Origin: a bacterium
GTDB lineage: Bacteria; SAR324; NAC60-12
Assembly (NCBI GenBank): GCA_965205865.1
Contig: CBDBHR010000030.1
Location: 256,001-320,000 of the forward strand
Direction: 5' to 3'
Length of the DNA: 64,000 nucleotides
Position 1 is the stretch's first letter. Each line of letters starts with the position of its first letter. The notes below the pieces were generated by a model that was not told the origin of the DNA, searched no databases, and worked only from the letters and a program-made list of their open reading frames with translations. The position numbers and the translations under genes are program-made. Shown here piece after piece: positions 6,019 to 23,937 of the stretch.

Positions 6019-6029
6019 TAAGTGATCAG

Positions 6030-6406: not shown

Positions 6407-7903
6407 TTACATATCAGAATAGTTGCTTTTAAACTTTTCATAATTATTAAAATTTTGAATTGATTGAGGAGCTCCTTGAATTATTTTTTGTTCTATAAGA
6501 TTTGAAAGTTTAATTTTTTGTTTAAAATGTTTTATAAATCTGAACTCTATAACTAATACTCTTTGGTTTGTCATTTTTTTAATTTCCTCAAAAGAATATA
6601 CAGACCTCTTCCCTATAAGAGAAACAACTTCCAGTAATTCATTTGAACGAAATACTGATTCAATTATACCTATTGAAGTAATAGCTTGAACTGGAGTAGA
6701 TACATAAAAAAATACTAAATCATTACATTTTAATTGTTTTATTGGAGCATGACAAAGATAAACTTTTTTTATTGTGTTTCCAGGAATTTCATCCTCTTCT
6801 ATAGGTTCTATAGGAAGAGACATTTGCAAATTTTTTTCAGGAAAAAGAATGTGGTAATACCTCTCTTGTATTGGGATAATATATTTTTTAATATGACTCG
6901 AATCATCATAAAATGGAAAATATTTAATATGGTAGTCTAAACCTTTTATTTGAGGGGCACCCGGTTTAGTAAAATATTTTTGAAAAACTAATTCTGTTTC
7001 TTTTGTCCCTTTATCTTTTAAATCTGTTTCTGCAATCTCATCGAATCCAAAATCTTTTATTAAATCAATTAATATTTTGTGTTTCGGAAAAACTGTCATC
7101 CAACAAGACTTAAATTGATTTGTCACAGAATAGAAAAAAGCCTGTTTTAACATCAATTCACCCAATTTTTTCCCTCTATGAGATTCAGCCACTTTAAATG
7201 TAGCAAGTTTTAATGATTTTTGTGGGAGATTATAATTGATATAATCATCTTCTTTAGCTTCCTTGTAAATACATATAGATTCCAATTCATTTGATGAATT
7301 TTTAATTGTCCAAGCCTTTACTTGTTCTTCAGAACATTTTTCAAACCACTTTTGAAAATCTATGTAATCTTCTCTTAAGTTATCAAAGATTTTATCATCA
7401 CTATTTATACTATAAAGAAATTCTGTTTCAATTTTAGGAAGAGAAATTTCAATTTGTTTTGGAAATAGTCTTTCCAGAGTATTATTTGCTTGATTGATAG
7501 TAAGAACTTTATTTCTAATCGAAGCATTTTTAGCTCTTTGATGAATACCAATATCTTCCGTTATCAAAAAAGAAACAGTGTGTCTTTGTAAAGCGTATAG
7601 TAATTGACAATCAATTTTATCATTAGTGGACTTTATTAATCCAAATAAATTCTTTAAAGAATGTTCTTCAGCAATTGGAGGTCTTTCAAGAATTCTATAT
7701 TTCTTGATTTTACTTAAAACTTTTTCTTTTCTTTGTGGATTATTATCATTTTGTAAATCTTCTATTGTTAAAGGATGTATGCAAATAACAGCAAAATTTT
7801 CATTGCATAAGCTATGAAATTTTGTAAATGCATCTTTCAAAATTTCATTATCTTCCAATTGTATAAAAATATTGGTATCTATGAGAAAGAAAATTTTATC
7901 CAT
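6407..7903 (-). CDS. PIN domain + GNAT acetyltransferase + C-terminal PUA/EVE-like domain protein
   Basis: N-terminal FLIDTNIFI...D...LITED (PIN); LKLATFKVAESHRGKKLGELML (GNAT acetyl-CoA motif); C-terminal GNTIKKVYLC...DLVFFYVS...SIGIIE. Very AT-rich. Confidence 0.8.
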   Translation of the reverse strand: MDKIFFLIDTNIFIQLEDNEILKDAFTKFHSLCNENFAVICIHPLTIEDLQNDNNPQRKEKVLSKIKKYRILERPPIAEEHSLKNLFGLIKSTNDKIDCQLLYALQRHTVSFLITEDIGIHQRAKNASIRNKVLTINQANNTLERLFPKQIEISLPKIETEFLYSINSDDKIFDNLREDYIDFQKWFEKCSEEQVKAWTIKNSSNELESICIYKEAKEDDYINYNLPQKSLKLATFKVAESHRGKKLGELMLKQAFFYSVTNQFKSCWMTVFPKHKILIDLIKDFGFDEIAETDLKDKGTKETELVFQKYFTKPGAPQIKGLDYHIKYFPFYDDSSHIKKYIIPIQERYYHILFPEKNLQMSLPIEPIEEDEIPGNTIKKVYLCHAPIKQLKCNDLVFFYVSTPVQAITSIGIIESVFRSNELLEVVSLIGKRSVYSFEEIKKMTNQRVLVIEFRFIKHFKQKIKLSNLIEQKIIQGAPQSIQNFNNYEKFKSNYSDM

Positions 7904-7971
7904 TAGAATTTGAAAGAATACACTAGAAAAATTCTAATTTTATAGCTATTATTTTTTTCTTTGTTGGACAA

Positions 7972-8376
7972 TTAAGCAACCAATTTATTAGAAATATATC
8001 TATAAGATTGTGGGGGATAACTAATTTCTCCAAGAATCTTTTTTAACTCAATTGGTTTTTTATATTTTACTGGATTTTCAAGATAAAGGGCAAAACCAAA
8101 ATCACGATTTTTAAAATATTTTTGAAATGAAATAAGATCTATCATGGTACAATGTTTTGAAATATCCCAAAGCATTTTTAAGGGCATTTTTTTTACTTCC
8201 TCCAGATCACATTCACCAATAACTTTTGAAATTGGAGAGCAAGCATAAATAAAAATCTTTCTTCTATCATCTTTTTTAAACAGAGGAAATTTCCTTCTAA
8301 GCTCAATAGTCTTCCACCCTTTTAATATGCCTGTAGCATACTCAGAATGAATACTAATCAATAAGTCTCTTTTCAT
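7972..8376 (-). CDS. ASCH (PUA-like) domain protein
   Basis: LLISIHSEYATGILKGWKTIELRR (GxKxxExR motif)...IYACSP...PPQSYRY; GGAGG RBS upstream. Confidence 0.85.
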   Translation of the reverse strand: MKRDLLISIHSEYATGILKGWKTIELRRKFPLFKKDDRRKIFIYACSPISKVIGECDLEEVKKMPLKMLWDISKHCTMIDLISFQKYFKNRDFGFALYLENPVKYKKPIELKKILGEISYPPQSYRYISNKLVA

Positions 8377-8424
8377 AATACACCTCCATGTGTTTCGATA
8401 TTACTACACCCTAACCCGGTAAAT

Positions 8425-8790
8425 GGGTCAGGCTTGCAAGTTTGCGAATTTAAGAAAACATTTTTAGGTTAAGTTCTTTTAACCGCTCTTGGAGATTTGT
8501 GGATTCTTTCAATCTTTCTCTCAATTTATGCACTCTACGACTGAAAGTAGAATCATCTCGATTGAGAGCATTTGCCACTTCCCGGATTGTTGCAGATTCC
8601 AATTGAAGACTTATAAAAGCGACGAGAGTCGCTGTCATCGAAATAAGTACGTTGCCCCCCATTACCTCGAAGTATCACATGATAAAGCGTACCAGGGTCG
8701 TACAAACGCGTTTTCCGAGACATCTTGGCAAATTGAAAAAGGTTAAAATTTAAAAAATACTCATTTTTGCAAACTTGCAAGTCTGACCCC
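8425..8790. mobile_element. RAYT/Y1-transposase-derived non-autonomous element, copy 1
   Basis: TIRs GGGTCAGGCTTGCAAGTTTGC...GCAAACTTGCAAGTCTGACCCC. The minus strand carries a RAYT-like N-terminus (MSRKTRLYDPGTLYHVILRGNGGQ..FDDSDSRRFY) joined to a C-terminal HTH-like tail (IREVANALNRDDSTFSRRVHKL). Confidence 0.85.
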
Positions 8791-9147
8791 TTTTCCACGA
8801 TGAAGCATATTTTATTAGAAGCAATTGGACTCTTAACCCAAGTACCGCTTTTTTTTAAATCGGCATTTTTTAAACAAAGACAGAAGAAAAGTGAAAAAAA
8901 TTGAATAGGCCGTCTATCCCCCAAGAAACCTATCAAAAAATAGGAAAATTCCTCATGAATTTCTATTTACAAATCAATTTTCAGATGCTACTGTCTTGAA
9001 AATTTTTGATTTTCCTAAATGATATCGTGGCAGAAAAACTAATCTGATCGGTAAAAAAGGCCCGGAAAGAGACAAACTGGGTGGGGAGGTAGTCGCAATA
9101 CCAAAGACGGGTGGATTGTTGAAGACCGAAAAAACAATAAAAATCCT

Positions 9148-9840
9148 ATGGATATTTCATTGCAGGAAATCGAAGAAATAGAAATGCTTACATTGCGATG
9201 GGTATTTCAATCAGTGCTTGATTTTGGCATGGAAGCTCATGAGATTTTTCATAAATCACCGGATAGTGTGAAAGACATTGCAGAAGATGTAACAAGGGAA
9301 TTACTTGACAGACTTTCAGGATTTAACGTTCAACAAAGAATTTATGGCACTGTAGATTATAAGAAGGCCAGATACGTTATCTTACCTGAGCAAACAGTCA
9401 GACAAGCGTTATTCATTGACTCAAAAGCAGAAAAAGAAAACCGTTCTGCCACAATCCAGATGTCTCAAACCTCCATGCGCATAAAACAGCGGAGGGCAGG
9501 AACTGAAATAAATGAAAAGGGAACCCTGCCGGAAATTTCTAAATATGGCGGAACAAATTTTTTAACGACTACATGTCTTGTACATTTTAAGTATGAAGAT
9601 GATGCCACTGGTGCGCATCATTTACGCAAAGTTACTATAGTTGCTATTCCCAATGGCCGATTACAGAACAGGTACAATCCAAGTGTTGATGATGGAATAT
9701 GGTTGGCAGGAAGGAATGCTCCTACACTACGGGAAGATTTCAGGGTAAGAGTCAGTTTCAGTAAATTAAAATCCAAGGCAGCATGGCGTGTGCAAGTGTT
9801 GACTTATAACGAAGAGTGCATAGGATCATGGCAATCATAG
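9148..9840 (+). CDS. Type II restriction endonuclease, SfiI/BglI-like family
   Basis: Resembles SfiI as recalled: LQEIEEIE..TLR; AEDVT; G.VDYKKAR; FIDSKA; PNGRLQNRYNP; RVRVSFSKLK..AAWRVQ. Confidence 0.75.
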   Translation: MDISLQEIEEIEMLTLRWVFQSVLDFGMEAHEIFHKSPDSVKDIAEDVTRELLDRLSGFNVQQRIYGTVDYKKARYVILPEQTVRQALFIDSKAEKENRSATIQMSQTSMRIKQRRAGTEINEKGTLPEISKYGGTNFLTTTCLVHFKYEDDATGAHHLRKVTIVAIPNGRLQNRYNPSVDDGIWLAGRNAPTLREDFRVRVSFSKLKSKAAWRVQVLTYNEECIGSWQS

Positions 9841-10838
9841 ATATTTCAAAAAAGCTGGAACCTAATGCCATCTATTGCGGAGATTCCAGAGTATTGCTCA
9901 AAGGAATTGAAGCGGAATCGATTGCTCTCAGTGTATGGTCGCCTCCCTACTATGTCGGAAAAAATTATGAGAAGGACTTAACTTTTAAGGCTTGGAAAGA
10001 ATTATTGAAAGAAGTCATTCATTCCCATTTTCCGATTATCAATCCAGGCGGGTTTCTGGTAATCAATATTGCTGACATTTTATGTTTTAAAGATGATTCA
10101 ATGCCGAGGATAATGGCAGAGAATGTGTCTCGAAGGAAAATAAATCTTTCAAGTGAAGAAATAGTAAAGGCCAAAGAGAAGAATCCTGATTGGAATAGAT
10201 ACCAACTGGCGGAGCACTTCAATTGCAGTGAACAAACCATTGACAGAAGACTTAATGGCAACAATATCAGGGGGGGGAAATATCAATCTCAGACAAGAGT
10301 CTTCTTGGTCGGCGGTTTTATTGAAGAAGCGGCACTGGAAGCAGGCTTTTATTTATATGATCGTCGCATATGGATCAAAGACGCAGCCTGGGAGAACTCG
10401 AGATGGCACACGATATCCTATCGCTCAGTAGATGAATCCGAATATATTTACATATTCTGGAAGCCAGGTATAACTAAAGTAGATCGTGCAAGATTGACTA
10501 AGCAGGAATGGATTAATTGGGGTTCGAGGGGAATCTGGGAGATTTCATCAGTTCGTAGTAATTCTGATCATGATTCTAAATTCCCGGTCGAGTTGCCAAG
10601 AAGATTGATCAAGCTCTTCACTGATCCTGGTGAAATTGTACTTGATTGTTTTATCGGTAGTGGAACCACCGCAGTTGCTGCCCTGAGTGAAACAAGACAA
10701 TATGTCGGCATAGACAAAGAGAGCAAATCGGTCAAAATTGCACGAAAAGCCGTGGCATCATTTAATGACCATAAAAAAGAATCAGTACAAATGGAGTTAA
10801 TGATCCGAGAAATTGAAGCGATTTATAATGTGGGATGA
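9828..10838 (+). CDS. Beta-class DNA methyltransferase (probably N4-cytosine) with internal HTH-like insert
   Basis: WSPPY catalytic motif precedes VLDCFIGSGTT; overlaps the REase stop. ATG 9828 preferred. Confidence 0.88.
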   Translation: MAIIDISKKLEPNAIYCGDSRVLLKGIEAESIALSVWSPPYYVGKNYEKDLTFKAWKELLKEVIHSHFPIINPGGFLVINIADILCFKDDSMPRIMAENVSRRKINLSSEEIVKAKEKNPDWNRYQLAEHFNCSEQTIDRRLNGNNIRGGKYQSQTRVFLVGGFIEEAALEAGFYLYDRRIWIKDAAWENSRWHTISYRSVDESEYIYIFWKPGITKVDRARLTKQEWINWGSRGIWEISSVRSNSDHDSKFPVELPRRLIKLFTDPGEIVLDCFIGSGTTAVAALSETRQYVGIDKESKSVKIARKAVASFNDHKKESVQMELMIREIEAIYNVG

Positions 10839-10888
10839 TTGCCTAATTTGCACAAACACATGATAGAGGCAAAGCGCTAAAAAGCGAA

Positions 10889-11220
10889 TCACATCTCCTT
10901 GCGGGAGGAAATCACGCGGTCGATCAGACCGAACGCCAAGGTTTCTTCTGCAGTAAACCAATTGTCGCGGTCGATAGCCATTTTGATTTCTTGATAGGTT
11001 TTACCGGTGGCCTGGTAGTAGATATCAATGATGAAATCCCGGGTTTTGAGGATTTCATTGGCTTGGATTTCGAGATCCGTGGCCCGCCCTTGATAGCTGG
11101 TTAAAAGCGGTTGGTGGATCATGATTTTGGAAAGGGAGAAGGCGAAACGACGGCTTTTGTTGGCAGCCAGACTGAGAATCGAGCCCATGCTGGCGGCAAA
11201 TCCGGCAACAATCGTCGTGA
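10889..11220 (-). pseudogene. clpP: 5'-truncated ClpP protease fragment
   Basis: GFAASMGS, IMIHQP and DRDNWFTAEE motifs; the N-terminal part is replaced by element copy 2. Confidence 0.85.
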
Positions 11221-11221
11221 A

Positions 11222-11570
11222 GGGGTCAGGCTTGCAAGTTTGCAATTTAAGAAAACATTATTAGGTTGAGTTCTATTAACCGCTCTTGGAGATTTGTGGA
11301 TTCCTTCAATCTTTCTCTCAACTTATGCACTCCACGACTGATAGTAGAATCATCTCGATTGAGAGCATTTGCCACTTCCCGGATTGTTGCAGATTTCCAA
11401 TCGAAGACTTATAAAAGCGACGAGAGTCGCTGTCGTCGAAAAAATACGTTGGCCCCCATTGCCTCGAAGTATCACATGTTAAAGCGTGCAAGGGTCGTAC
11501 AAACGCGTTTTCCGAGACATCTTGGCAAATTGAAAAATACCCATTTTTGCAAACTTGCACAGCCTGACCC
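11222..11570. mobile_element. RAYT-derived element, copy 2
   Basis: GGGGTCAGGCTTGCAAGTTTGC...GCAAACTTGCACAGCCTGACCC; interior nearly identical to copy 1, same orientation. Confidence 0.85.
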
Positions 11571-11649
11571 GGTTTCTTACGTATTGATGGAATAGTGTTT
11601 TTACCGTTTCACTTCTTGAACTTCATCAAGTGATTTCTTTTCTTTGTGG

Positions 11650-11711
11650 TTGACATGGATTTCTCTATAAACTATTTTTTGAACAGACATCATCTTTGAA
11701 CAGACATCATC
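11650..11711 (+). promoter_or_regulatory. Candidate sigma70 promoter followed by a 17-bp direct repeat
   Basis: TTGACA(11650)-N17-TATTTT; TTTGAACAGACATCATC twice (11678-11711). Confidence 0.35.
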
Positions 11712-11815
11712 GGGAATAAGTTCAGGGTGTGATTTCGCAAAAAAGGGGAAATCTTGAACGCTGTAAAATCAATGGTTAGGTGGTACGACGCGTTTCACAG
11801 ATCTGAGTGAATGCA

Positions 11816-12195
11816 ATGTTCATTGCCTGCTAATAATCACATTTGCAATTGCCGTAATCGTTTCGTTCCTGGTTGTCATACTTTTCCGGAAATCCATTGC
11901 CACGATTCTAGGTCGGATCGTGGCCGAGAAGATCAGAGAGGTGTGGTAGCAGTATTTAACATTCGCGATCTACGTTGTGGGGGTGTCCGGCGGCGTACGG
12001 GTATGGGACCTGGAGAAGTACATCACCCCGAGGCCCGAGGAGGCCGAGGCCATAGTGCTCAACCCCGAGCGCTGGACGTTGGAGGTGTACCGCACTGTCA
12101 TCGGCACTTTGCAAAGCATTGCGTGGATGCTGCTTGCGTACGTGATCGTTCGGGGTTTGGAAGCAAAGCGTTCGAGGCCGCCTGCCGAGAAGTAG
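11816..12195 (+). pseudogene. Small membrane protein pseudogene
   Basis: MFIA/frameshift/LLIITFAIAVIVSFLVVILFRKSIATILGRIVAEKIREVW*QYLTFAIYVVGVSGGVRVWDLEKY...; one frameshift and one TAG. Confidence 0.6.
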
Positions 12196-12279
12196 AATTG
12201 CCACCTGATCTGGGAGGTAGCGGTATTTCTCAGCCATGTCACCGCGTCAGCCTTTCGTCAGCAAGAAACGAGACCACTA

Positions 12280-13079
12280 ATGTCAGACCCAAAACACACT
12301 GCATACGAGCGTTTGAAGGAGCTTCACTCCGAAGCCGAATCGGCGACACACGCGTGGACAAAAATGGGAAATTTACTGAATGGCGTCAGAAAGTGCAGTC
12401 GGCACTGCGTCATTTGTTCGACGAGAATCGCCAACAACTCAAATCATTCAATTCCGTGCGTTATGTTCCACCTATGTTCTTAACGGGCATGCCGGACAGC
12501 GTGTTCCACAATTCATTCATAGGCGGTATGAAAACCGCTAGTGGAATCATACGCTCCGCAATTCAAGAATATGAGGATTACGAACAGCAAGCTGGTCACG
12601 ACGTCGATCACACTTCAGCCGACGGCAACTCTACCATCTCCCGTAAAGTTTTCGTCGTTCATGGTCACGACAACGAAATGAAGGAATCGGTCGCAAGATT
12701 CCTTGAGCGCCTCGACTTTGAAGCGGTCATTTTACACGAACAAGCAAGCGGCGGTGACACGATCATCGAGAAGTTTGAACGCAATGCGGACGTTAAATAT
12801 GCAGTCGTACTCTTGAGTCCGGATGACGTTGGCGCAGCAAAGGATAAATCCAATACACCGCAGCCAAGACCGCGCCAGAACGTAGTCTTTGAACTGGGCT
12901 ATTTCGTCGGGAAGCTTGGGCGGTCGCATGTCTGTCCACTGGTTCGTGAACCTCTGGAACGTCCGTCTGACATTCACGGTGTTGTCTACATCCCATTCGA
13001 CGAGGGGAATTGGAAGATTCATCTTGTCAAGGAACTCAAAAATCTTGGGTTCGAGGTCGACGCGAACAAGGCAGTCTAA
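12280..13079 (+). CDS. TIR-like (CAP12/Pycsar-type) nucleotide-binding domain protein, probably frameshifted near the 5' end
   Basis: KVFVVHGHD...TIIEKFE...AVVLLSPDD...PRQNVVFELGYFVGKLGR...PSDIHGVVY. The natural-looking start at 12280 is out of frame with the body until ~12345. Confidence 0.8.
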
Positions 13080-13168
13080 TATTGAATCGGTCAACCGGAG
13101 CGGTGATTGAGTACGGAATCAAAATTGTCAGATCGCTGGCCACCGCTAGGTTAGCTCAGGTGTTTTGC
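13074..13168 (+). other. Degenerate attC-like site
   Basis: GTCTAAT overlaps the stop (RYYYAAC-like); arms AACCGGAGCGGTG / CACCGCTAGGTT; ends GTTTTGC (GTTRRRY-like) just before the next RBS. Confidence 0.5.
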
Positions 13169-13183
13169 GGAAGGGAGATAGAA

Positions 13184-14455
13184 ATGAAGAAAGTTATTTT
13201 CAACATATTTCTCGTCATCTGCGTTGCGGGAGTCGCTTTCGCACAGTCGGTCGAAAGCGAGATTCGGGAGTTTGCCGCACGGGAGTATCCCAACGACTCC
13301 CGGATGCGGCAGTATGTTTACAAAGAGCAGATTGCGGCACACCGGTATATGGTTACCGCCAAAGATGCAGACGTTAAGCGAATTGCCATTCGAGAATACC
13401 CGAAAGACTACGCAATGCAGAAATATGCCTATTATGAACAACTCTCAGCAAAACGATACATGACCACCGTGAGAAATCGCGAGGTCAAACGAATTGCTCT
13501 GCGGGAGTATCCGAACGATTATTCCATGCAGAAGTATATATATGATGGGCAGTTGTCAGCAAAACGGTACATGGAAACTGTTTCTGATCAAGACGTGAAG
13601 AGGATGGCGATGCACGAATATCCGAATGATTATTCTATGCAGAAATACATCTATGACAATCAGCTATCGGCAAAGCTGTATATGTCCTCCGTTAGAGATC
13701 ACGAGATCAAATCAATTGCCATGCGGGAGTATCCGAAGGATTATTCGATGCAGAAGTATACATACGATGAGCAATTGTCAGCAAAACGATACATGGAAAC
13801 TGTTTCTGACCAAGACGTAAAGAGGATCGCGTTGCACGAATATCCGAATGACTATTCTATGCAGAAATACACCTATGACACTCAACTCACCTATGATACT
13901 CAACTCGTGGCCGACTTCGAGGCTTGGGTCACTGGAGATCGCTTGTATCGCAGAACATGCCCCAACAGCAAGTGTGGTGTTGTTGGGATTTTAATGTTCA
14001 GGGAAAAGGCAACAGTTTACGAAGAGAAAAACGGTTGGGCCAGAGTGTCGATGTATTACAATGCGGCTTGCCGAAACGGCCTGAGTGAGTACGTTGATTC
14101 AGGCAACGCGGCTTGCACTGAGAGCAACGGCATTGTCGACAGTCGCATTGCTGAATGGGTATCCATTAAGTACCTCAGCAAGACGCGTCCCCCCGATCCG
14201 AGCGCAGGTGCTACAGGAGATTACGCACTTGTTAGTGGCTCAGACGACTACCGCAAATACAAAGATATATTTGCCCGGACAGCCTCCAAGCTCATCGCTT
14301 CTGGCCAGTGCACTGCACGAGACTTTAAAGAAATAGGCGGCTGGCTGAAATCCATGAACTTCAAGGACAGTCCCGTGTACTTTACCTACTGTGGTGGGAT
14401 GATCGTTCAGAACCGGTTGTATCTCAATGCAGCCACCGGGGAAGTATTCAAATAG
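13184..14455 (+). CDS. Secreted protein with six 37-aa tandem repeats and a C-terminal SH3b-like/Cys-rich region
   Basis: Signal MKKVIFNIFLVICVAGVAFA; EYPxDYxMQKYxYDxQLSAKRYM repeated with a 111-nt period; then LYRRTCP..CGVVG...VYEEKNGWARVS. Confidence 0.75.
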   Translation: MKKVIFNIFLVICVAGVAFAQSVESEIREFAAREYPNDSRMRQYVYKEQIAAHRYMVTAKDADVKRIAIREYPKDYAMQKYAYYEQLSAKRYMTTVRNREVKRIALREYPNDYSMQKYIYDGQLSAKRYMETVSDQDVKRMAMHEYPNDYSMQKYIYDNQLSAKLYMSSVRDHEIKSIAMREYPKDYSMQKYTYDEQLSAKRYMETVSDQDVKRIALHEYPNDYSMQKYTYDTQLTYDTQLVADFEAWVTGDRLYRRTCPNSKCGVVGILMFREKATVYEEKNGWARVSMYYNAACRNGLSEYVDSGNAACTESNGIVDSRIAEWVSIKYLSKTRPPDPSAGATGDYALVSGSDDYRKYKDIFARTASKLIASGQCTARDFKEIGGWLKSMNFKDSPVYFTYCGGMIVQNRLYLNAATGEVFK

Positions 14456-14508
14456 ACACATTTGGCTTTGCTTAGCAAATATCATTCTAAAGTGAACGAT
14501 GCTGTGAA

Positions 14509-14817
14509 GGGGTCAGGCTTGCAAGTTTGCGAATTTAAGAAAACATTTTTAGGTTGAGTTCTTTTAACCGCTCTTGGAGATTTGTGGATTCCTTCAATCT
14601 TTCTCTCAACTAATGCACTCCACGACTGAAAGTAGAATCATCTCGATTGAGAGCATTTGCCACTTCCCGGATTGTTGCAGATTTCCAATCGAAGACTGAT
14701 AAAAGCGACGAGAGTCGCTGTCATAGAAAAAATACGTTGGCCCCCATTGCCTGAAGTATCACATGTTAAAGCGTGCAAGGGTCGTACAAACACGTTTTCC
14801 GAGACATCTTGGCAAAT
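14509..14817. mobile_element. RAYT-derived element, copy 3 (right end missing)
   Basis: Left TIR intact; stops at ...GGCAAATT and runs into GTGAAGGGGTCAGGCT of the next copy. Confidence 0.85.
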
Positions 14818-14823
14818 TGTGAA

Positions 14824-15827
14824 GGGGTCAGGCTGTGCGCCAGGAAAGCTGGCAAGAAATAGAGAGTGAAAGTCTCTTACTCGGTAAGGCAGTAACGACC
14901 CGCCGAGTCCCCGAGTCATGAGTGGTTATTCGCAAGGATAGGCGCTAAGCGTTGACAGGGGAGAACATAGGCTCGGTATTGAGCTCCGAAATCATAGTTT
15001 CAGGCGCTGACCTTGTGGTCTGGTGGGGAAGGCAATATCGACCGAAGGCGTTAGCGCGAGTCTCGGTCGAGCCTGGCGGAGTCAAAGACCCGGCGCATGT
15101 GTGGAAGTTTCTTGATCGGAACCTGGGAGATCCTGAAGACGACTGTCAACATTCCATTGGTAGTCGGATCGGGAAAATTAATAAATAACCCCGATATCTA
15201 CGTCTTCAGGAAGTCGGACAAGTTCGTAGTAGCGATGAAGCGGCGAACAATGAGATCATTTGCAGAGAGTAACAATGCAAAGGAAATCAACGGAGCCTGT
15301 GGAGCAAAGGGACTTGGCTGAGAGGAATTCTGCTTGCCCTCCTGTGTTCGTAACTCAGAGGCCGGTAAAATCAGAGAGCGGTTTAAGCAGGGTGCGCCAA
15401 ACGGCAACGTTTGAGCGTCTGACTCGAAGCAGGAGCCGGATGCGTTAGCAGCGCAGGTCCGGATCTGTACCGGAGGAATGACGAAAGGTGGCTGGAAACC
15501 ACTATAAGTCAGTTCTTTACGGTGACTGCAAGTTTGCAAATTTAAGAAAACATTTTTAGTTGGAGTTCTTTTAATCGCTCTTGGACATTTGTGGATTCCT
15601 TCAATCTTTCTCTCAACTTATTCACGCCACGACTGATAGTAGAATCATCTCGATTGAGAGCATTTGCCACTTCCCGGATTTTTGCAGATTTCCAATCAAA
15701 GACTGATAAAAACGACGAGAGTCGCTGCCATCGAAAAAAATATGTTGGCCCCCATTGCCTCGAAGTATTGCATGATAAAGCGTACCAGGGTCGTACAAAC
15801 GCGTTTTCCGAGACATCTTGGCAAATT
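14824..15827. mobile_element. RAYT-derived element, copy 4 (left TIR interrupted by a group II intron; right end missing)
   Basis: GGGGTCAGGCT (14824-34), then the intron, then TGCAAGTTTGC (from 15527); removing the intron restores the TIR exactly. Confidence 0.85.
14835..15526 (+). ncRNA. ORF-less group II intron (IIB-like), 692 nt
   Basis: 5' GTGCG; domain V GAGCCGGATGCGTTAGCAGCGCAGGTCCGGATCT (~15433-66); domain VI ending ...TTTACGGTGAC (AY); no RT ORF. Confidence 0.85.
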
Positions 15828-15832
15828 GTGAC

Positions 15833-16199
15833 GGGGGCAGGCTTGCAAGTTTGCGAATTTAGGAAAACATTTTTAGGTTGAGTTCTTTTAACCGCTCTTG
15901 GAGATTTGTGGATTCCTTCAATCTTTCTCTCAAATTATACACTCCACGACTGAAAGTAGAATCATCTCGCTTGAGAGCATTTGCCTCTTCCCGGATTTTT
16001 GCGGATTTCCAATCAAAGACTAATAAAAACAACGAGAGTCGCTGTCATCGAAAAAAATACGATGGCCCCCATTGCCTCGAAGTATCACATTAAAAAGCGT
16101 ACCAGGGCCGTACAAACGCGTTTTCCGAGACATCTTGGCAAATTGAAAAAGGTTAAAATTTAAAGAATACCCATTTTTTCAAACTTGCAAGCCTGACCC
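15833..16199. mobile_element. RAYT-derived element, copy 5
   Basis: GGGGGCAGGCTTGCAAGTTTGC...CAAACTTGCAAGCCTGACCC. Confidence 0.85.
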
Positions 16200-16203
16200 G
16201 TTT

Positions 16204-16243
16204 CTTGAAAATCTGATCCTTTTTTAGAATCGCTCAATTTAGG
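16204..16243 (+). mobile_element. Isolated right end of an IS1380-like element
   Basis: CTTGAAAATCTGATCCTTTTTTAGAATCGCTCAATTTAGG matches ~54265-54304. Confidence 0.75.
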
Positions 16244-16267
16244 TATAAATCAGTTCTTTACGGTGAC
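16244..16267 (+). ncRNA. 3' terminal fragment of a second copy of the 14835 intron
   Basis: TATAAATCAGTTCTTTACGGTGAC versus TATAAGTCAGTTCTTTACGGTGAC at 15503-15526; again followed by TGCA. Confidence 0.7.
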
Positions 16268-16497
16268 TGCATACTTGCGTATTGGTATTTTTATCGTTTC
16301 ATAGGTGAAGAGTCTCCCTCAGAATTCTCTCGGTTTTTATATTTCTTCAGGAAGCCTTAGAGGCCTTTATCCCTCCTGTTTCCCATGCAGGACTCTCATC
16401 GTGGAGCCAATCAGAGGGCCTCCGTCCTTTTCTTGGAACCACCGATTCCAACATCCTTTTCCATGCAATTATTTAATACAAATATGCAAGCCTGACC
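16268..16497. mobile_element. Sibling miniature element with related termini
   Basis: TGCATACTTGCGTATTGGTATT...AATACAAATATGCAAGCCTGACC; interior unrelated to copies 1-6. Confidence 0.6.
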
Positions 16498-16768
16498 GTA
16501 TGCGGTAACGACCGCTCTTCTAGTGGGTTGAAGTCCCACCAAAGTAATTATCCGTTCGCTTTGTAGGCAACGGGAGCAGCGTGGGAGTAATCTGGGGTTG
16601 TAAGTTCCCGACGCCAAAACAACGGGCCGTAACGAAAGTGAACCTAGATGTAGCCTCGAAACTTGAGTCGAAAGCGCCGACCCTGTGGTCAGAAGGGAAA
16701 GGCTGTTATCTCACGAATTAGACAACGGATTTCTTCGTGAGGGTTTTCCGGGGTAGCAGGGATGGCAC
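16498..16768 (+). ncRNA. 5' fragment (domain I) of a different group II intron
   Basis: Starts GTATGCGG; GGGTTGAAGTCCC; AACGAAAGTGAACC; GCCGA-[CCCTGTGGTCAGAAGGG]-AAAGGC; no domain V downstream. Confidence 0.65.
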
Positions 16769-17095
16769 CGCAAAGAAGAAACGCAAAAAAGCTTCCTCGC
16801 CCGACTGATCAACCCCTTCCATCAGTAGGAATCTCTTCCTCAAAGGTGCCCCCTCAGGGGGCACTTTCTCTCTCGCAATCAGTGTTCCAAAGATTGGTTC
16901 AAATAACGTCTCGTTGTCAAATCGAACGTTATTCTGAGCCGCCATTTTTGCCCCTTGCAGCGAAAATGGTCGGACTCCAGAAATTTGTTATGGAAATTAT
17001 TGAAAATACGCTGTATCTAATAATCCAAATTAGGTGGTTGCAAAAAGGAACCTCTGATGGTAATTTAAAAACCACACACTTATAAAGGAGTTCAC

Positions 17096-17323
17096 ATGGC
17101 AACCGCGGTAAAACTATCAGATGATCTTTATGAAAAAGCAAAGATTCAATCAAAGGTTTTTAAAAGGTCTATTGCTGGTCAAATTGAATACTGGGCAAAA
17201 ATAGGACAAATGATTGAAGAAAATCCCGACCTCCCACTTCCGTTTATTCAAGACATTCTGGTCGGAAGAGAACAGATAAAATCAGGTCAAGGCGCTCCGT
17301 ATGTATTTGGAGAGGGTGAATGA
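17096..17323 (+). CDS. ParD-like antitoxin
   Basis: MATAVKLSDDL...RSIAGQIEYWAKIG..EENPDLP; AAGGAG RBS. Confidence 0.85.
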   Translation: MATAVKLSDDLYEKAKIQSKVFKRSIAGQIEYWAKIGQMIEENPDLPLPFIQDILVGREQIKSGQGAPYVFGEGE

Positions 17324-17610
17324 CCCGGATTACAGAAATAATCCAGTCACCTATTTTTGAAAAACAGAAAAAGAAACTGCGCAAACCGCAGATTAAAGAC
17401 CTGGATAAGGCTGTAAAGTCTATCTCCAATGATCCTACAATCGGAGATATGAAAGTAGGAGATCTGAGGGGTATCCAAGTTTATAAGTACGAATCAAAAA
17501 ATCAGCAGATCCTTTTAGCCTATGAAGTAATTGATTCAACTTTATTTTTATATACGTTTGGATCACATGAAAACTTTTATCGAGATCTGAAAAAATACCT
17601 TCAACGATAA
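17320..17610 (+). CDS. RelE/ParE-family toxin
   Basis: ATGA overlap with the antitoxin; G..K.GDL.G..VYKY...GSHENFYRDLK. Confidence 0.85.
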   Translation: MTRITEIIQSPIFEKQKKKLRKPQIKDLDKAVKSISNDPTIGDMKVGDLRGIQVYKYESKNQQILLAYEVIDSTLFLYTFGSHENFYRDLKKYLQR

Positions 17611-17876
17611 TTCTTCGCCTCCATTCAACTCTATAATAACGTTGAAGTCAGTCGCTTTCAACCCAACCATGGACTGTGATTGAAACGAGTGATTCCATCA
17701 AACACAGAAAAAAATTAGGAGTCGCTAATGAGTGGAAGTCGGTCTGCACTGACTGGTTGGAAAATCCTGCCCAAAACTCATCGATACTTTTTCTTTTTCT
17801 CCTCGACGACTCCGTTTATTCGGTATTCCGTGTTCTTGCTCCGCTCAATGCCCTCATAATTCTGGTTTTCATGAAA

Positions 17877-18241
17877 GGGTCAGGCTTGCAAGTTTGCGAA
17901 TTTAAGAAAACGTTTTTAGGTTGAATTCTTTTAACCGCTCTTGGAGATTTGAGAATTCCTTCAATCTTTCTCTCAACTTATGCGTGCCACGACTGATAGT
18001 AGAATCATCTCGATTGAGAGCATTTGCCACTTCCCGGATTGTTGCGGATTTCCAATCGAAGACTGATAAAAGCGAAGAGAGTCGCTGTCATCGAAAAAAA
18101 TACGTTGGCCTCCATTGCCTCGAAGTATCACATGATAAAGCGTACCAGGGTCGTACAAACGCGTTTTCCGAGACATCTTGGCAAATTGAAAAAGGTTAAA
18201 ATTTAAAAAATACTCTTTTTTGCAAACTTGCAAGCCTGACC
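17877..18241. mobile_element. RAYT-derived element, copy 6
   Basis: GGGTCAGGCTTGCAAGTTTGC...GCAAACTTGCAAGCCTGACC, followed by an extra TTGACCCC. Confidence 0.85.
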
Positions 18242-18336
18242 ACGTTTGACCCCGTTTCAAGCGCTGTCTATCAGGATGAAAAACCTTTCGCGGCCGAGCC
18301 GATCTTTTCCCCATTAAAAACCATGAGTCATAGGCG

Positions 18337-18908
18337 ATGAGACTGAAAGCAACTGAAGAAAAAATTCATTCAACAGAAGCCTTTTGTGAAATTACAAGAT
18401 ACCTACTCTCTAACCCTCTTTCTCCTGTAGTTGCCGGAAAGGATGCTCGGGAACAGTTAGAAAATCATAGACTTCAAAAGAATATAGTAGCGCATATGCT
18501 TTGCGCGATAATAGTAGAGAACACGATAAAATACTCTGGGAAATGGAACACAATAAAGAATGTGAGTACTCACACAATATTCATAAAATCTACGGAGAAC
18601 TTTCCAATTCAACAAGAGCAGAATTGAAGAGCACGTATGACAAGCAAACAGCGGTATTCGCAGCAATAGAGGGAAGCATAAATGGGAAAAAAGTAAAACT
18701 TGGTGATATTGTCCAATTGGCCTCACTCGAACAAGCATTACAATCCAATGAGATTACAATGAGAAATTTCAAATATGACAACAAATTTCGGGGCAAAACC
18801 AGCGTGATTGCAAACGCTATATGGGACGCAAAGACGATTTGGATTCTACCATCCGGGCACAAGCCATTCGCTGTGTCCTTGTTCGAATACATGAAGGACC
18901 GTGTCTAA
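18337..18908 (+). pseudogene. Hypothetical protein, apparently frameshifted
   Basis: Overlapping ORFs 18337-18627 and 18501-18908 read as one gene with a frame change near 18500; no family recognised. Confidence 0.35.
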
Positions 18909-18959
18909 ATTCATATTTTCCACAGACACGATCATGAGAAATTTGAGGATGAAAGTCTA

Positions 18960-19246
18960 AAAAGGAACTTGAAAGTCATGAATAACTAGGTTTTCTTTTC
19001 ATAGAGGATCAACCGGTCGAGTAAATTTTTTTGCTTTCGTCTGTTTGTGGCGTCCTCGTTTCTTATTTTGAGGTTTTGGAGGATAGAGCTTGAGTACTTC
19101 TTGGCTGATGTCGTGGTAGCGTTGCCGGAAGCGATCGAGTCGGGTTCGACTCAAAGCAGATTGTCCTTTGGCTTGGTCTACTTGCTCTCTGATCTGCAAG
19201 AATAACTGATTCATTTCCTGAACCCAAAGAGCCTTTTCTTGTTCAT
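18960..19246 (-). mobile_element. IS66-family transposase internal fragment
   Basis: ...KKRGRHKQTKAK/NLLDRL...HDFQVPF with frameshifts. Confidence 0.65.
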
Positions 19247-19250
19247 AAAT

Positions 19251-19450
19251 GGGGACAGACTTGCGTATTGGTATTAAGAATTTGTCTTTAGTGCATGAGT
19301 TTTTCATCCATCTGAGGATTGACTCTCATCTGGGTTTGACATGGCAATGCTTTGTCTGTTCAGCAAGGAAGATCTCAGAAAGGAACCAAGTCTCAATCCT
19401 TTTTCTGAGTGCCATTTCACAAATTAAATACCAATACGCAAGCCCGACCC
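19251..19450. mobile_element. 200-bp miniature inverted-repeat element (sibling family)
   Basis: GGGGACAGACTTGCGTATTGGTATT...AATACCAATACGCAAGCCCGACCC, flanked by AAAT and ATTT. Confidence 0.75.
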
Positions 19451-19453
19451 ATT

Positions 19454-20726
19454 TTAACCGACCTTGGGAATATCGCTCCACCCTGCCAGGTATCGCGGGG
19501 ATTTGTGAGACTGTTTCATTTTCCATGATTTGTCGTAAACCCCGCATGAGGCGACTCTCAGTGTCATGGGACCTTCTTTTTGATTGATGCGATCCATGGC
19601 CTTCATGAGGGCGACATCCTTTTCCGAATCACCTTTCTCGATGAATGATAGTTGAATGGATGATTTATCCCGGATGTCGGACAACTTCACTAGAGCTTTT
19701 TTATATTCGTACCCCTCCCTGTAGAGCCGTTCGAGCACGGAGAGAGCATATTTGATCACTTTCCTCGTATCTGCCGTCTGCGAGAGAGATCGTTTTGAAT
19801 CCACCGCATAATACTGGGGGGTATTTTTAAAGGGGTTGGTCCTGATCCAGACTTCGACCGAGGAGCATACCGAACTTTGTTTTCTTAATTTTTCACAGGC
19901 AACCGAGGCGTAATTGGAAACCGCCTCACGCAAGCTCTCGAGGTCATAGACGGCATCTCCGAAGGTACGGCTACTGAGAATTTCTTTTTTCTTTTGCACT
20001 TCGAGTTCGAGTTCGAAGCAAGGATTTCCTCGTAATTCTTCCTGTATTTTCCTGCCGACAATGGAAGTTTTTTTGCGGACCAGGCCTTCATTCTTGAAAT
20101 CCCTGAAATCCCTTGCCGTTCTGATCCGGAGTTTTCTGAATCTACGCCCAATTTGCCGTCCGACCCCCCAAACCTCCTCGACGTCCAGTTGTTGGAGGAT
20201 TTTATCTTGTTGCCGCGTATTCATAACTGAAACCACTCCTCCGCTGGAGTCGTGTTTTTTAGCATAAGCATTGGCTGCTTTCGCCAGCACCTTGGTGGGG
20301 CCGATACCGATGCTCACCGGAATTCCCGTATCGCGCTCCACGATTTTTTTGATTTCCATCCCGTATTCATGGAGCCCCCACTTTTCGTACCCGCCACAGG
20401 TTCAAAAATGCTTCATCCACCGAGTAAATTTCCAGTTCCGGCGTAAACCGGCTGAGGGTGATCATCACTCGATCGCTCATATTGATATATAAACTGAAAT
20501 TAGAGCTGAAGACGGCTACCTTGTTTTTTTCGCAAATATCCCGGTATTTAAAAAAAGGAGCGCCCATCGGAATGCCGAGTTTTTTCAGTTCCACCGTTCT
20601 GGAGACGAAGCAGCCGTCGTTGTTGGAAAGGACGCCGACAGGGAGACCGAGAAGATCAGGTCTGAACAATCGCTCGCAGGCGCAGTAGAATGCGTTGCAG
20701 TCCACCAGGGCAAATACTTTATTCAT
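19454..20726 (-). pseudogene. umuC: Y-family DNA polymerase V subunit, frameshifted near 20385
   Basis: FALVDCNAFY..CER.FRPDL, LSNNDGC, YSVDEAF; after a frame change GYEKWGLHEYGMEIK...SIGIGPTKVLAK...WKMKQSHKSPRY. Confidence 0.85.
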
Positions 20727-21077
20727 TCAGATTTCTCGCACGATCGCTACCACGACACCCCAAACTCTTGCTTCCAATTCGTTTGAGACATGTATATCTC
20801 GATAGTCTTGGTTGTCGGATCTCAGTATGATGCCTTTTCCAAAGCGAAATATTCGTTTGCAGAGCAGTTCTCCCTCGAATGCGACAACTGCCACCCGGCC
20901 GTCAACTCTGTCGATACTGCGGTCGACCACTAAAATGTCGTTTTCGAAAATGAGAGGCGCCATTGTGTTGCAGGTAGCCTTGAAGAAGAAAGTGGACGTC
21001 TTGTTTTTGACAAAACGCTCGTCGAGCGATTGATATTTTTCAATGAAATCATCATGAATACCAAACAATCCCATCAT
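20727..21077 (-). CDS. umuD: UmuD-like S24 protein
   Basis: TFFFKATCNTM..DILVVDRS...GELLCKR...VWGVV; directly upstream of umuC. Confidence 0.75.
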   Translation of the reverse strand: MMGLFGIHDDFIEKYQSLDERFVKNKTSTFFFKATCNTMAPLIFENDILVVDRSIDRVDGRVAVVAFEGELLCKRIFRFGKGIILRSDNQDYRDIHVSNELEARVWGVVVAIVREI

Positions 21078-21261
21078 CGCCTCTTGACGGTATCTATTTT
21101 AAGTGAAAACATATTATAATACCCATGAAATTTATTTTAAGTTTATCATGAAATCAATTGAAAAATGATAGACGGCCATCTTGATTTTCTCTTTTTAAAA
21201 AAAGGGGTGATCCGTTTTTGCGTACTCTGTGATTCCAGTAGATGAATAAACGGGGGAATTC

Positions 21262-21996
21262 ATGTGTTTTTCCGTAGAAGTGGACAAGGACATTAAAAAA
21301 CTGGCGGCGCGCTTCCATGCTTTGATCGACCGGCATGCTTTTGACGGGTTTTCGTCCATGCAAAAGCTGGAGGCGGAATTGGATCCGGGAAGGTTGAAAG
21401 GACTGCTGGGTCTGAAACGAAAGTCCCGTTCTCTTTTTTTCAAAGAAAGCGCTGAGGATTCTCGCATTTACCCGGGATATTTCGCACCCGTCATCGTCTG
21501 GGAAAATGGCGTGAGACAGATCCGCCCGATGCGATATCGAGTGAGGCCCCGTGGATCGGCAGAAGAAATTCCTTCCAAATTCAACGTTTTCAATGCACGG
21601 CTCGATTCACTGGAAAAGCGACGAACCTGGAGAGGCTTATTTATGAGGAAACACGCTTTGTTTCCATTTTACCGGTTTTATGAGTGGCTCACCAATGAAA
21701 GAGGAAAGAAGCGGCTTGTTGAATTCAGTCCGCGTGGTTGTGATCGAATGTGGGCTCCCGCCCTTTATGACACCTGGGTATCGAGGGACAACGAAATGAG
21801 CTTTCACTCATTTGCGCTGATCACCGATGTTCCTCCCCCGGAAATCGAGGAGCAGGGACACGACCGCTGCCCCATTTTTCTTCGGGAAACTCTGATAGAT
21901 GACTGGCTTCGACCCGAAGGAAAGTCTGCAGCGCACTATTATGAATTACTGACAAACAAAGAGATCGTCTATTACAGCCACAAACCACTTGATTAA
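21262..21996 (+). CDS. SRAP (YedK/HMCES-like) abasic-site processing protein
   Basis: Cys2, FNARLDSL, FYEW, HDRCP motifs. Confidence 0.88.
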   Translation: MCFSVEVDKDIKKLAARFHALIDRHAFDGFSSMQKLEAELDPGRLKGLLGLKRKSRSLFFKESAEDSRIYPGYFAPVIVWENGVRQIRPMRYRVRPRGSAEEIPSKFNVFNARLDSLEKRRTWRGLFMRKHALFPFYRFYEWLTNERGKKRLVEFSPRGCDRMWAPALYDTWVSRDNEMSFHSFALITDVPPPEIEEQGHDRCPIFLRETLIDDWLRPEGKSAAHYYELLTNKEIVYYSHKPLD

Positions 21997-22051
21997 CCTG
22001 AGTTCGACATAAATCTTCAATAATATGAGTATCCTAGTGTATATGTCATCC

Positions 22052-22120
22052 TCCCGGATTGTTGCAGATTTCCAATCGAAGACTGATAAAAGCGACGAGA
22101 GTCGCTGTCATCGAAAAAAA
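22052..22120. repeat. Internal fragment of the RAYT-derived element
   Basis: TCCCGGATTGTTGCAGATTTCCAATCGAAGACTGATAAAAGCGACGAGAGTCGCTGTCATCGAAAAAAA matches copies 1-6. Confidence 0.8.
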
Positions 22121-22830
22121 GGGCGTGTCCCACTGAATCTATCTCGAATCAGGCCTAACTGATTGAAAGGACTTGACAAACTGATTTTCCTGCTTATCTC
22201 CTATTAGGGTGACTGCAAACCCACCCGAAAAAAGAGGCAGAGATGGCACTATTTGTCACCGTCCCGATTAGCACCGAAGTCATTGAATCCAATGCCGACT
22301 GTGCCCTCAGTGGGGCTTATGGAAACGGGGTTCTGGTGATCACAATCGATAGCCGTGGTCAAAATGTCCATCAGCGCTTGGGGCTGGGCAGCAAGACGCG
22401 GCTCCATTGGGGGGCCGAGCATTGGTTCGAGGTCCAAGAGTCGAGTGGATTGACCTGGCCGATACCTGCTGTTCAAGGCCGAAAAGCGAATGAGTCCCGA
22501 AGAAAAGCAGCGCTTGATCGAGATTGTCGAGGCCGATGAGCAGATCGGTCGCTTGCGCGCCTTCTTGGGTGGTGTCTGGAACATCTTCGAAGACAGTCAG
22601 CACGAAGAGCAAGCCCGCGCGGCGCTGGACACCTTGAAACAGATGCCGCGGGATCAACGCCATTCGAAGCCCTTTGAGAAAGTCCTCCGGTTCTTGGAAT
22701 CCCATTTCGAATGGATGACCGAGTACTTGCGAAAGGACGGGGTCCGGCGCAATTCTCTGTCCGAAAGCGGCATGCGAGTTCTGCGACGACTGGAAATCGA
22801 ACACGACGGGTTTCGCTCCGAGAAGGGTCG
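22121..22830 (+). mobile_element. Transposase remnant, family uncertain
   Basis: GC-rich block beginning GGGCGTGTCC; broken ORFs ending ...YLRKDGVRRNSLSESGMRVLRRLE...GFRS, resembling a transposase C-terminus. Confidence 0.5.
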
Positions 22831-22863
22831 GGACATTAGAGGTTTAGAACAGGCAGGTATGTT

Positions 22864-23202: not shown

Positions 23203-23406
23203 AGCACTTAACAACCCGCTCCAACAGAGCCTCCTCTAAGAAATCTGCCAAAAAATCAAAAAATCCTCTCGTCTATTGCTCTGATACATCTATTTCAAAG
23301 GGTAGGGTCTTCTGCAAATTTTTGATTTTCCTACTATGCAGACCTTGGAATTGCGGGAGTTTTAAAGCAGACCAGATTGGTCTGCTTTAAAATTTTGCAG
23401 ATTTTT

Positions 23407-23601: not shown

Positions 23602-23774
23602 TGCTTATCCTTATATTATATTTTAGGTTGTGTTTAATGTTATTCAATAACTGAATTCGGATTTTTCATCTATTTTCACTTCAATTGAATGAAGTGAAAA
23701 GTGTAGGAGGAGAAACACTTTTTTAACTTGGCATGAAAGAATGAAAAATCGGATGGAACTCCTTTTTAACGCTG

Positions 23775-23851
<77 letters not shown>

Positions 23852-23861
23852 GTACTCGAAA

Positions 23862-23937
23862 TGGTGGGCGCTACAAGGATCGAACTTGTGACCTACGGCT
23901 TGTAAGGCCGCCGCTCTCCCAGCTGAGCTAAGCGCCC
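23862..23937 (-). tRNA. tRNA-Val(TAC)
   Basis: GGGCGCTTAGCTCAGCTGGGAGAGCGGCGGCCTTACAAGCCGT...TTCGATCC...CCA. Confidence 0.95.

Follow-up and report, generated by a model that had tools for sequence, protein, structure and literature searches.

Co-oriented miniature derivatives of a TIRtron among the cargo blocks of a SAR324 defense island

The names TIRtron and TIRYT were introduced in 2013 by Di Nocera, De Gregorio and Rocco for Y1 transposase genes with terminal inverted repeats (TIRs) that carry a GGGGWSAS motif; the naming was based on sequence alone, and the part of that report available to us proposes mobility and cleavage assays as future work (PMC3733652). The TIR repeats of TIRtrons are described, in the same accessible portion of this literature, as moderately abundant families that occur in dimers or clusters. 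In the classification of Quentin et al. (2018), as far as the available text goes, TIRYT forms subclass 2.1 of the Y1 HUH superfamily, with a C-terminal helix-turn-helix (HTH) of the Bac_DnaA_C, HTH_23 or HTH_28 type (PMC6006769). Here we analyze a 64-kb stretch of a SAR324 genome (assembly GCA_965205865.1, contig CBDBHR010000030.1, positions 256,001 to 320,000; hereafter the window), in which a miniature inverted-repeat transposable element (MITE) derived from a TIRtron lies in six co-oriented copies among the genes of a defense island.

The family shares with described TIRtrons a Y1 HUH domain followed by a C-terminal Bac_DnaA_C-like HTH, long TIRs with the GGGGWSAS motif (here GGGGTCAG) and the lack of hairpins formed by repetitive extragenic palindromes (REPs). 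It differs in that the repeat is an internally deleted element with both gene ends rather than a bare TIR, in that the full-length cousins are multi-copy and near-identical, and in that the clusters are strictly co-oriented and bracket defense cargo. No description of co-oriented, cargo-bracketing arrays, of multi-copy, near-identical full-length elements or of derivatives that keep the gene ends was found in the available portions of PMC3733652 and PMC6006769. The element itself is of a known, little-studied kind; its strictly co-oriented arrays, present with independent derivatives in two sister genomes, were not found described in the accessible TIRYT literature.

Several other systems bear a partial resemblance to the locus. 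REPINs are also non-autonomous repeats with inverted ends that pair in single-stranded DNA (ssDNA), and are thought, in the part of the report available, to be moved in trans by a related Y1 transposase, the REP-associated transposase or RAYT (Bertels and Rainey 2011, PMC3116915). RAYTs are typically single-copy genes with GTAG-tagged REPs, whereas the present family has TIRs, multi-copy genes and a score below the NCBIfam cut-off. The insertion sequences (IS) IS608 and ISDra2 of the IS200/IS605 group share the Y1 HUH domain and, as with them, none of the copies inspected here shows a visible target duplication; a TGA[A/G] beside the left end in 14/19 copies recalls their target tetra- or pentanucleotide, though it could be part of the element. 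IS608 and ISDra2 have no TIRs but asymmetric subterminal hairpins, lack a DnaA-like HTH and are oriented by replichore, a rule that the copies here do not seem to follow (four switches in the sister genome). We rejected IS200/IS605 membership on the grounds of the TIRs that replace asymmetric hairpins and of an orientation that is not tied to the replichore. Restriction-modification (R-M) units placed between repeats, near mobility genes and with cargo substitution at a conserved site, are described in the accessible part of a survey by Furuta, Abe and Kobayashi (2010), which holds no Y1/TIRYT elements or co-oriented arrays (PMC2853133). Integrons and ISCR/IS91 elements also have serial, same-direction repeats that part small cargo modules, and ISCR/IS91 likewise use an HUH enzyme; here neither an integron integrase nor attI/attC nor a promoter in common was found, and the cargo strands are mixed. 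IS91/ISCR enzymes possess two catalytic tyrosines and act on asymmetric ori/ter ends.

A non-autonomous derivative of a TIRtron

The repeated element is a non-autonomous MITE that arose by one internal deletion from a TIRtron, that is, from a TIRYT gene encoding a Y1 HUH transposase with a DnaA-like HTH and bounded by ~27-bp TIRs that carry the GGGGWSAS motif. Its copies in the window are as follows.

8420..8795, plus strand: MITE copy 1, complete, with its two TIRs; the minus strand is the one that reads through the gene remnants
11217..11576, plus strand: MITE copy 2, both TIRs, 17-bp internal deletion; left end abuts a truncated clpP
14505..14823, plus strand: MITE copy 3, ends at element position 317 without the right TIR, joined head-to-tail to copy 4
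14824..15828, plus strand: MITE copy 4, left TIR split by an intron, ends at position 317, joined to copy 5
15829..16205, plus strand: MITE copy 5, complete; reference copy for searches
17872..18248, plus strand: MITE copy 6, complete
22052..22119, plus strand: MITE fragment, element positions 158-229; adjoins a 60-bp repeat of another family (21986-22059)

A direct-repeat search over positions 7000-24000 returned a 300-nt family with six co-oriented starts (8420, 11217, 14505, 15512, 15829 and 17872) and a 68-nt sub-family that adds the seventh piece at 22052-22119. Scanning the whole window with the terminal 22-mer gave 8 matches at no more than 3 mismatches, against 0 expected from 100 shuffles: five left ends on the plus strand (8424, 11222, 14509, 15833 and 17876) and three right ends on the minus strand (8769, 16179 and 18222). 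The scan missed the right end of copy 2, which bears a small insertion and was seen in the alignment, and the intron-split left terminus of copy 4, so that six left and four right termini are present in total. Neither the 22-mer scan nor BLAST found a further copy elsewhere in the 64 kb. The initial annotation of this DNA, made from the letters alone, had reported six same-strand copies and one fragment within 14 kb and none elsewhere in the window, with the left terminus kept in all six and the right in four, and this description stands. The copy that it began at 14824 is real; its true extent is 14824-15828, the left TIR being split by a 693-bp group II intron.

The conserved ends are ~5 nt longer than the 22-mer: the left one has TGAAG ahead of GGGG, and the right one continues past its final C run with C-R-T-T-T-C. 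Folded as ssDNA, the TIRs of copy 6 pair into a ~20-bp stem (z = -4.2). Copies 3, 4 and 5 form a head-to-tail triplet in which copies 3 and 4 both stop at element position 317 and are followed directly by the next left end, the two junctions being identical. No target duplication is visible at the copies inspected, in agreement with the initial annotation, and no empty site turned up with which to compare them. Target duplications are not expected for a Y1 enzyme.

On its minus strand each copy holds the start of a gene (MSRK...YHVILRGN) and the last ~50 codons, which resemble a DnaA-like HTH. That only the start and end of a Y1/HUH transposase remain and its core is deleted had been noticed at the outset, and comparison with a full-length element on another contig (C4; contigs of this assembly are written C and a number) bears it out. 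This parent, C4:25433-26466, is 1034 bp long as opposed to 372 bp for the MITE, and the difference is one 665-bp internal deletion: in BLAST alignments MITE positions 3-190 and 191-371 are 90-93% identical to the two ends of the parent. The extra 665 bp encode the missing core, with NHAHLAI (the HUH motif) and RYIHLNPIR (the catalytic tyrosine); both thus fall within the segment that is absent from the MITE. The full-length element with the same ends that the initial annotation had proposed to look for is therefore present in the genome, with one frameshift.

A cousin family at ~70% DNA identity comprises five copies in C29:722036-746000, each with an intact 330-aa frame. The five proteins are 98-100% identical to the query, which is itself one of the five. 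The cousin protein matches Pfam Y1_Tnp at 53.6 bits (cut-off 23) and, over residues 241-304, Bac_DnaA_C at 32.6 bits (cut-off 31.5), and it is a remnant of this latter domain that the MITE keeps. The cousin elements are bounded by GGGGTCAGGCTTGAAAGTTTG inverted repeats and have no REPs. The TIRs of the family begin GGGGTCAG, and GGGGTCAGGCTTG[C/A]AAGTTTG is found at both ends of MITE, parent and cousin alike. A sequence search returned more than 5,000 relatives with Y1_Tnp and Bac_DnaA_C domains, many of them on contigs of 1-1.5 kb. Multi-copy elements tend to sit on short contigs.

The family thus displays the features of TIRYT/TIRtrons, namely a Y1 HUH domain with the HUH and tyrosine motifs, a C-terminal Bac_DnaA_C HTH and GGGGWSAS TIRs in place of REP hairpins; the repeat displays those of a MITE, being short, non-coding, dispersed and furnished with the TIRs of an autonomous element. 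The initial annotation had derived it from a REP-associated transposase. Descent from a Y1/HUH gene by deletion is confirmed, but the family is TIRYT/TIRtron: the cousin protein scores 70.8 bits against NCBIfam REP_Tyr_transpos (NF047646), below the cut-off of 80, the ends are TIRs without REPs, and five near-identical copies occur on C29, all of which led us to reject a RAYT identity. We also considered whether the MITE might be a gene for a small HTH protein. In the MITE consensus the deletion fuses the gene ends out of frame, and the open reading frames (ORFs) vary from copy to copy; the copies are therefore non-coding and this candidate was ruled out.

Copy number, recent movement and strand

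The assembly examined is a 4.74-Mb metagenome-assembled bin with an estimated contamination of 3.73% and signs of a second strain. With copy 5 as query, BLAST returned 42 segments in it, which merge into ~20 MITE loci on six contigs, ten on the plus and ten on the minus strand. Six of these belong to the window; of the 14 outside it, C30 has six, C29 four and C10 two, and C16 and C28 have one each. The remaining segments comprise several solo ends, the cousin family and the parent, besides the fragment in the window. In a simulation, 0/200,000 runs placed six or more of 20 loci inside 14 kb. As the contrary of its own proposal, the initial annotation had named copies scattered evenly and in random orientation across the genome. 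The copies are indeed found genome-wide and on both strands (14/20 outside the window, 10:10), yet they are not evenly spread and each local cluster is co-oriented.

Pairwise MITE identity ranges from 88 to 99% and the tree is star-like, the only sister pairs being copies 2/3 and C30:794460/798923. The C10 and C16 copies are 99% identical and have unrelated flanks, which indicates that transposition was recent. A search for related loci returned 11, all in a sister genome of the same genus (G001, one closed 4.26-Mb contig), and when 61 genomes of the order were searched at protein level, the two of this genus had 37 and 39 matches and each of the other 59 had 0-4. G001 does not contain this MITE; it has a different one of its own, which is another deletion of the cousin with an insert of a 60-bp repeat. 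The genome pair offers strong genomic evidence that the elements are live transposons: full-length copies are nearly identical, a deletion derivative has formed independently in each of the sister species, and copies at unrelated sites reach 99% identity.

All 26 of the neighbor pairs within 10 kb (26/26) are co-oriented across the two genomes. The genome of the window contributes 12/12 such pairs (MITE 8/8, cousin 4/4) and G001 14/14. One G001 array has nine copies on one strand within 31 kb at 1.09-1.12 Mb, four more clusters examined are each uniform in strand, and the fragments of a fifth region all lie on one strand. Segmental duplication is evident in the G001 array, where a MITE-intron-ORF unit occurs three times at 98-99% identity; because of this threefold unit and the tandem triplet in the window, some of the 26 pairs are not independent. 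The direction of transcription was examined as a cause and rejected: the MITE strand is the main cargo strand at three loci (the window, C30:794-799k and the G001 array) and opposite to it at two (C29:71-78k and G001 95-110k).

The five near-identical full-length TIRtrons of the cousin family lie on one strand within 24 kb and constitute a second co-oriented array, of autonomous copies. Between them in this region (C29:719000-756000) lie IS4/IS5 transposases, the reverse transcriptase of a group II intron and small genes.

Cargo blocks, breakpoints and the origin of the array

The cargo of the island was labeled with Pfam and PADLOC, and 23 island ORFs were scanned.

2929..5775, plus strand: MmeI-like Type IIG restriction-methylase, the leftmost island cargo (Pfam, PADLOC)
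6407..8376, minus strand: GNAT/EVE and ASCH proteins, candidate defense pair PDC-M11A/B (Pfam, PADLOC)
9148..10838, plus strand: SfiI-like restriction endonuclease and N4/N6 methyltransferase, 90% identical to G001:101610-103510
10889..11220, minus strand: clpP 3' stub (ClpP C-terminal), 95.8% identical to the intact paralogue C28:51378-51709; breaks between ...CGTCGTGA and AGGGGTCAGG
11811..14455, plus strand: TIR-domain protein (PDC-S35; Pfam CAP12/Pycsar TIR domain) and a 481-aa neighbor
17096..17610, plus strand: ParD-like antitoxin and ParE-like toxin (Pfam)
19454..21996, strand not assigned: umuC, umuD and SRAP protein; umuC is frameshifted into frames of 301 aa and 119 aa (19454-20726)
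23775..23937, minus strand: tRNA-Asp and tRNA-Val; the island lies on their 3' side

HicB is also among the island blocks identified, and cargo genes occupy both strands. The labels proposed from the letters alone for the SfiI-like R-M system, the clpP stub, the TIR-domain protein, ParDE and ASCH agree with this list, ASCH being paired with GNAT/EVE; the PIN domain that had also been proposed was not seen by Pfam or PADLOC. Synteny with G001 resumes at 23357, beside tRNA-Asp/Val. The left flank (1-2475) maps 2 Mb away in G001, where the cargo blocks map to scattered sites. Positions 22835-44848 of the window, which include tRNA-Asp/Val, recur at C28:21940-1 with 99.5% identity, and this second copy ends the contig; it carries a different island without the MITE array. 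The 22-kb second copy is either a true duplication or the sign of a second strain in the bin.

The initial annotation had proposed to look for cargo gain and loss exactly at the element ends, and some breakpoints do fall there. The clpP stub stops exactly at the left end of copy 2, and the other half of the gene is absent. One public contig departs from the window sequence within 5 bp of the right end of copy 1. In contigs from two studies (public runs X6 and X7) a MITE right end is joined to 19452 and a MITE left end to 21996, so that MITE ends delimit the umuDC-SRAP block; in the window the boundary at 19452 abuts a TIR of another family. Such public contigs are short; uncovered stretches and joints with a side of fewer than 30 letters were set aside, and the low-share runs X1 and X2 were left out. 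Other limits do not coincide with the elements: homology of the SfiI R-M system with G001 extends from a point 178 bp past copy 1 to one 356 bp short of copy 2, and the right boundary of the island (22835) is ~700 bp from the nearest fragment. A further such case is a ~150-bp conserved leader (window 8866-9015; C28:52244-52397; G001:101610 onward) that precedes different cargo, the SfiI R-M system in the window and G001 and a 0.5-kb PNPOx-like gene on C28, with clpP next both times in the genome of the window. This locus has the look of a cassette swap with breakpoints away from the MITE ends. One-ended capture of the IS91 kind was considered for the clpP stub and found no clear support, as the stub is at a left end and the end-deficient copies are without a right end, which gives no consistent polarity.

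We consider it probable that the MITEs accumulated in a tolerant hotspot, with local reinsertion on the same strand and with recombination between direct repeats. The MITEs would be mobilized in trans by a TIRYT of the same genome and would have spread in this way to ~20 loci. The island on the 3' side of tRNA-Asp/Val would be a hypervariable site built of independently acquired defense, toxin-antitoxin and SOS modules. The most likely source of the local co-orientation would be a single-stranded intermediate that reinserts nearby on the same strand, combined with segmental duplication. Homologous recombination between the direct repeats could delete, duplicate or swap the intervening DNA, and may have produced the tandem triplet, the truncated clpP and the breakpoints at element ends.

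Several observations weigh against this account. The uniform strand of neighboring elements is not predicted by passive accumulation alone. The window copies are not a clade: their identities range over 88-97%, copies 2 and 3 (97%) are the only sisters among them, and the tandem copies show no less divergence than a random pair, so that with a star-like tree local hopping is not directly visible. The C4 element is the sole parent with matching ends, and its reading frame is broken once, in a T run. The umuDC-SRAP block is delimited by MITE ends in X6 and X7, and three shared R-M blocks lie within 5-360 bp of elements in both genomes, those of G001 belonging to the other subfamily.

It is possible, though unlikely, that the TIR ends are instead active recombination sites. 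A TIRYT would cut ssDNA at the outer TIR boundaries, and a co-oriented pair would act as a composite single-strand transposon or as cassette exchange points, with R-M and defense cargo spreading as in integrons or ISCR elements. Slightly more doubtful still is the fuller version, in which the enzyme would also rejoin the cut ends and the co-oriented remnants would serve as portable exchange points that move blocks between a right end and the next left end, a counterpart of the integron that circulates R-M and defense genes.

Proximity of cargo to element ends argues for such exchange. At C30:794460-799284 a Type ISP enzyme lies between two co-oriented, mutually closest MITEs (96%); on C29 a MITE begins 5 bp past an XcyI-type endonuclease gene, and the XcyI-type R-M system of G001 is ~13 bp from a MITE end; the SfiI R-M system lies between elements in both genomes. 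On C10 a MITE sits between an MmeI-like methylase and a Dam/EcoRV pair. MITE loci outside the window, these among them, also adjoin R-M or toxin-antitoxin genes. DNA-methyltransferase loci are enriched within 5 kb of a MITE (6/29 vs 0.89 expected, P = 2e-4). The SfiI, XcyI and Type ISP blocks are shared with G001 at 90, 91 and 89% identity, compared with 79-83% for core flank, which is consistent with horizontal exchange. The MITE-bounded umuDC-SRAP block of X6 and X7, where the window has the TIR of another family at 19452, likewise fits a swap at element ends. Finally, outside ~7/20 right ends there is a terminal stutter, made of one to three direct repeats of the last 7 nt of the TIR with 4-5 nt of flank (for instance window 18243-18262, C16:13790-13821 and C30:451310-451356), and this may be the footprint of repeated cutting and rejoining.

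The junctions themselves speak against exchange by the element ends. Beside shared cargo they differ between the genomes in spacing, orientation and MITE subfamily and are thus independent juxtapositions rather than one transferred unit, and shared cargo homology often stops 100-600 bp from the TIR. At 2 kb the methyltransferase enrichment is weak (2/29 vs 0.44 expected, P = 0.07). Other repeat families and introns are found at the seams as well. No window cargo was found together with its MITEs at a second site in its own genome, and no MITE-cargo-MITE unit was found at two sites. Among 15/45 public-contig joints no skip or circle joint matched the MITE outer ends, an absence that carries no weight there. 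Cargo strand and MITE strand agree at three loci and oppose each other at two, and since perfect TIRs put the same ends on both strands, a strand rule for composites is not obvious. Flanking of R-M genes by repeats is, moreover, a general phenomenon according to the accessible part of PMC2853133.

At the G001 ortholog of C30:794-799k, a MITE of the other subfamily follows just after oppC and is succeeded by different DNA, and no clean empty site was found there. A composite transposon was accordingly rejected, on the strength of this site, of the differing junctions and of the lack of any cargo that recurs with its MITEs. In G001 the homologue of the Type ISP gene (C30:795137-798034) is broken into small ORFs.

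The initial annotation had envisaged an integron-like cargo array driven by an HUH enzyme. Co-oriented derivatives of an HUH element do lie between defense and toxin-antitoxin blocks, but no repeated unit and no integrase or att-like site was found, Phage_integrase having no Pfam match in the 23 island ORFs, and the cargo strands are mixed. An integron was rejected on these grounds, the repeats being 372-bp transposon remnants and not attC sites. If the ends mediate cargo exchange, they would represent a new route for building defense islands; if they do not, the locus would be a clear case of small repeats that mark the seams of a defense island and then drive rearrangement by ordinary recombination.

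Orientation might also be set by replication, with no link to cargo, if insertion were coupled to the lagging-strand template as for IS608 and ISDra2, each replichore then imposing one strand. Y1 transposases of IS200/IS605 use ssDNA intermediates and target the lagging-strand template, according to the available part of Quentin et al. (PMC6006769), and each local cluster is uniform in orientation, as such a rule would have it. Around the closed G001 chromosome, however, the ten regions read + + - + + + - - + +, which is four switches where two replichores allow two. On C30 a weak GC skew is positive to ~640 kb, yet the copies run -, -, + (cluster), +, - and do not follow it, the skew being too weak to place origin or terminus firmly. 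We therefore regard this mechanism as improbable. The 26/26 co-oriented pairs, for which a replichore rule does not account, point to local reinsertion that is strand-specific or to arrays being constrained in how they grow.

That a mixed-strain bin has inflated the copy counts or created chimeric junctions is highly improbable: the 99.5% recurrence of 22835-44848 at a contig end of C28 and the contamination estimate would allow it, but the flanks of the six window copies are distinct and the copies differ from one another by 3-9%, public runs of four separate studies (X3, X5, X6 and X7) carry the same cargo-block pieces with few differences, and closed G001 shows the same architecture.

Other repeats in the seams

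The MITEs share the intergenic seams of the island with introns and other repeats. Such sequences survive there, and the repeats therefore appear to divide the island. Two of them are well delimited.

14835..15527, plus strand: gene-less group II intron of 693 bp in the left TIR of copy 4, between GGCT and TGCAAG (Rfam RF02005, 173 bits)
19251..19452, strand not assigned: mini-MITE of ~200 bp that belongs to a third family of TIRYT-like TIRs (core CTTGCGTATTGGTATT), with its right end directly at the 3' end of umuC

The intron has ~38-40 copies in its own genome. It occupies a fixed TIR position (GGCT/TGCAAG), in either orientation according to the TIR entered, and further TIR-inserted introns are present at C30:799265-799705 and at G001:1099025-1099723, 1106689-1107387 and 1109209-1109907. 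A second, diverged group II intron piece (16499-16850; Rfam 73 bits) directly follows a different TIR end, with the junction between ...GCAAGCCTGACC and GTATGCGG, and its last 100 bp are a 21-copy repeat. The third TIR family (core CTTGCGTATTGGTATT) is also found at 16272-16498, and its mini-element has ~5-10 genome copies. At least four other repeat families are located at seams (2601-2750, 5751-6050, 16751-16850, 18951-19250 and 21951-22050).

The 60-bp repeat at 21986-22059, which adjoins the MITE fragment, has more than 40 copies in G001, where the local MITE subfamily contains it at a constant internal position. Two tandem mini-elements of ~97 bp at C28:52530-52768 contain only the right TIR, the promoter region and four initial codons, with a second TIR-like end to close them, and adjoin an integrase and a Phd/YefM antitoxin. 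Rfam also returned an Acido-Lenti-1 match of 44 bits at window positions 48396-48441.

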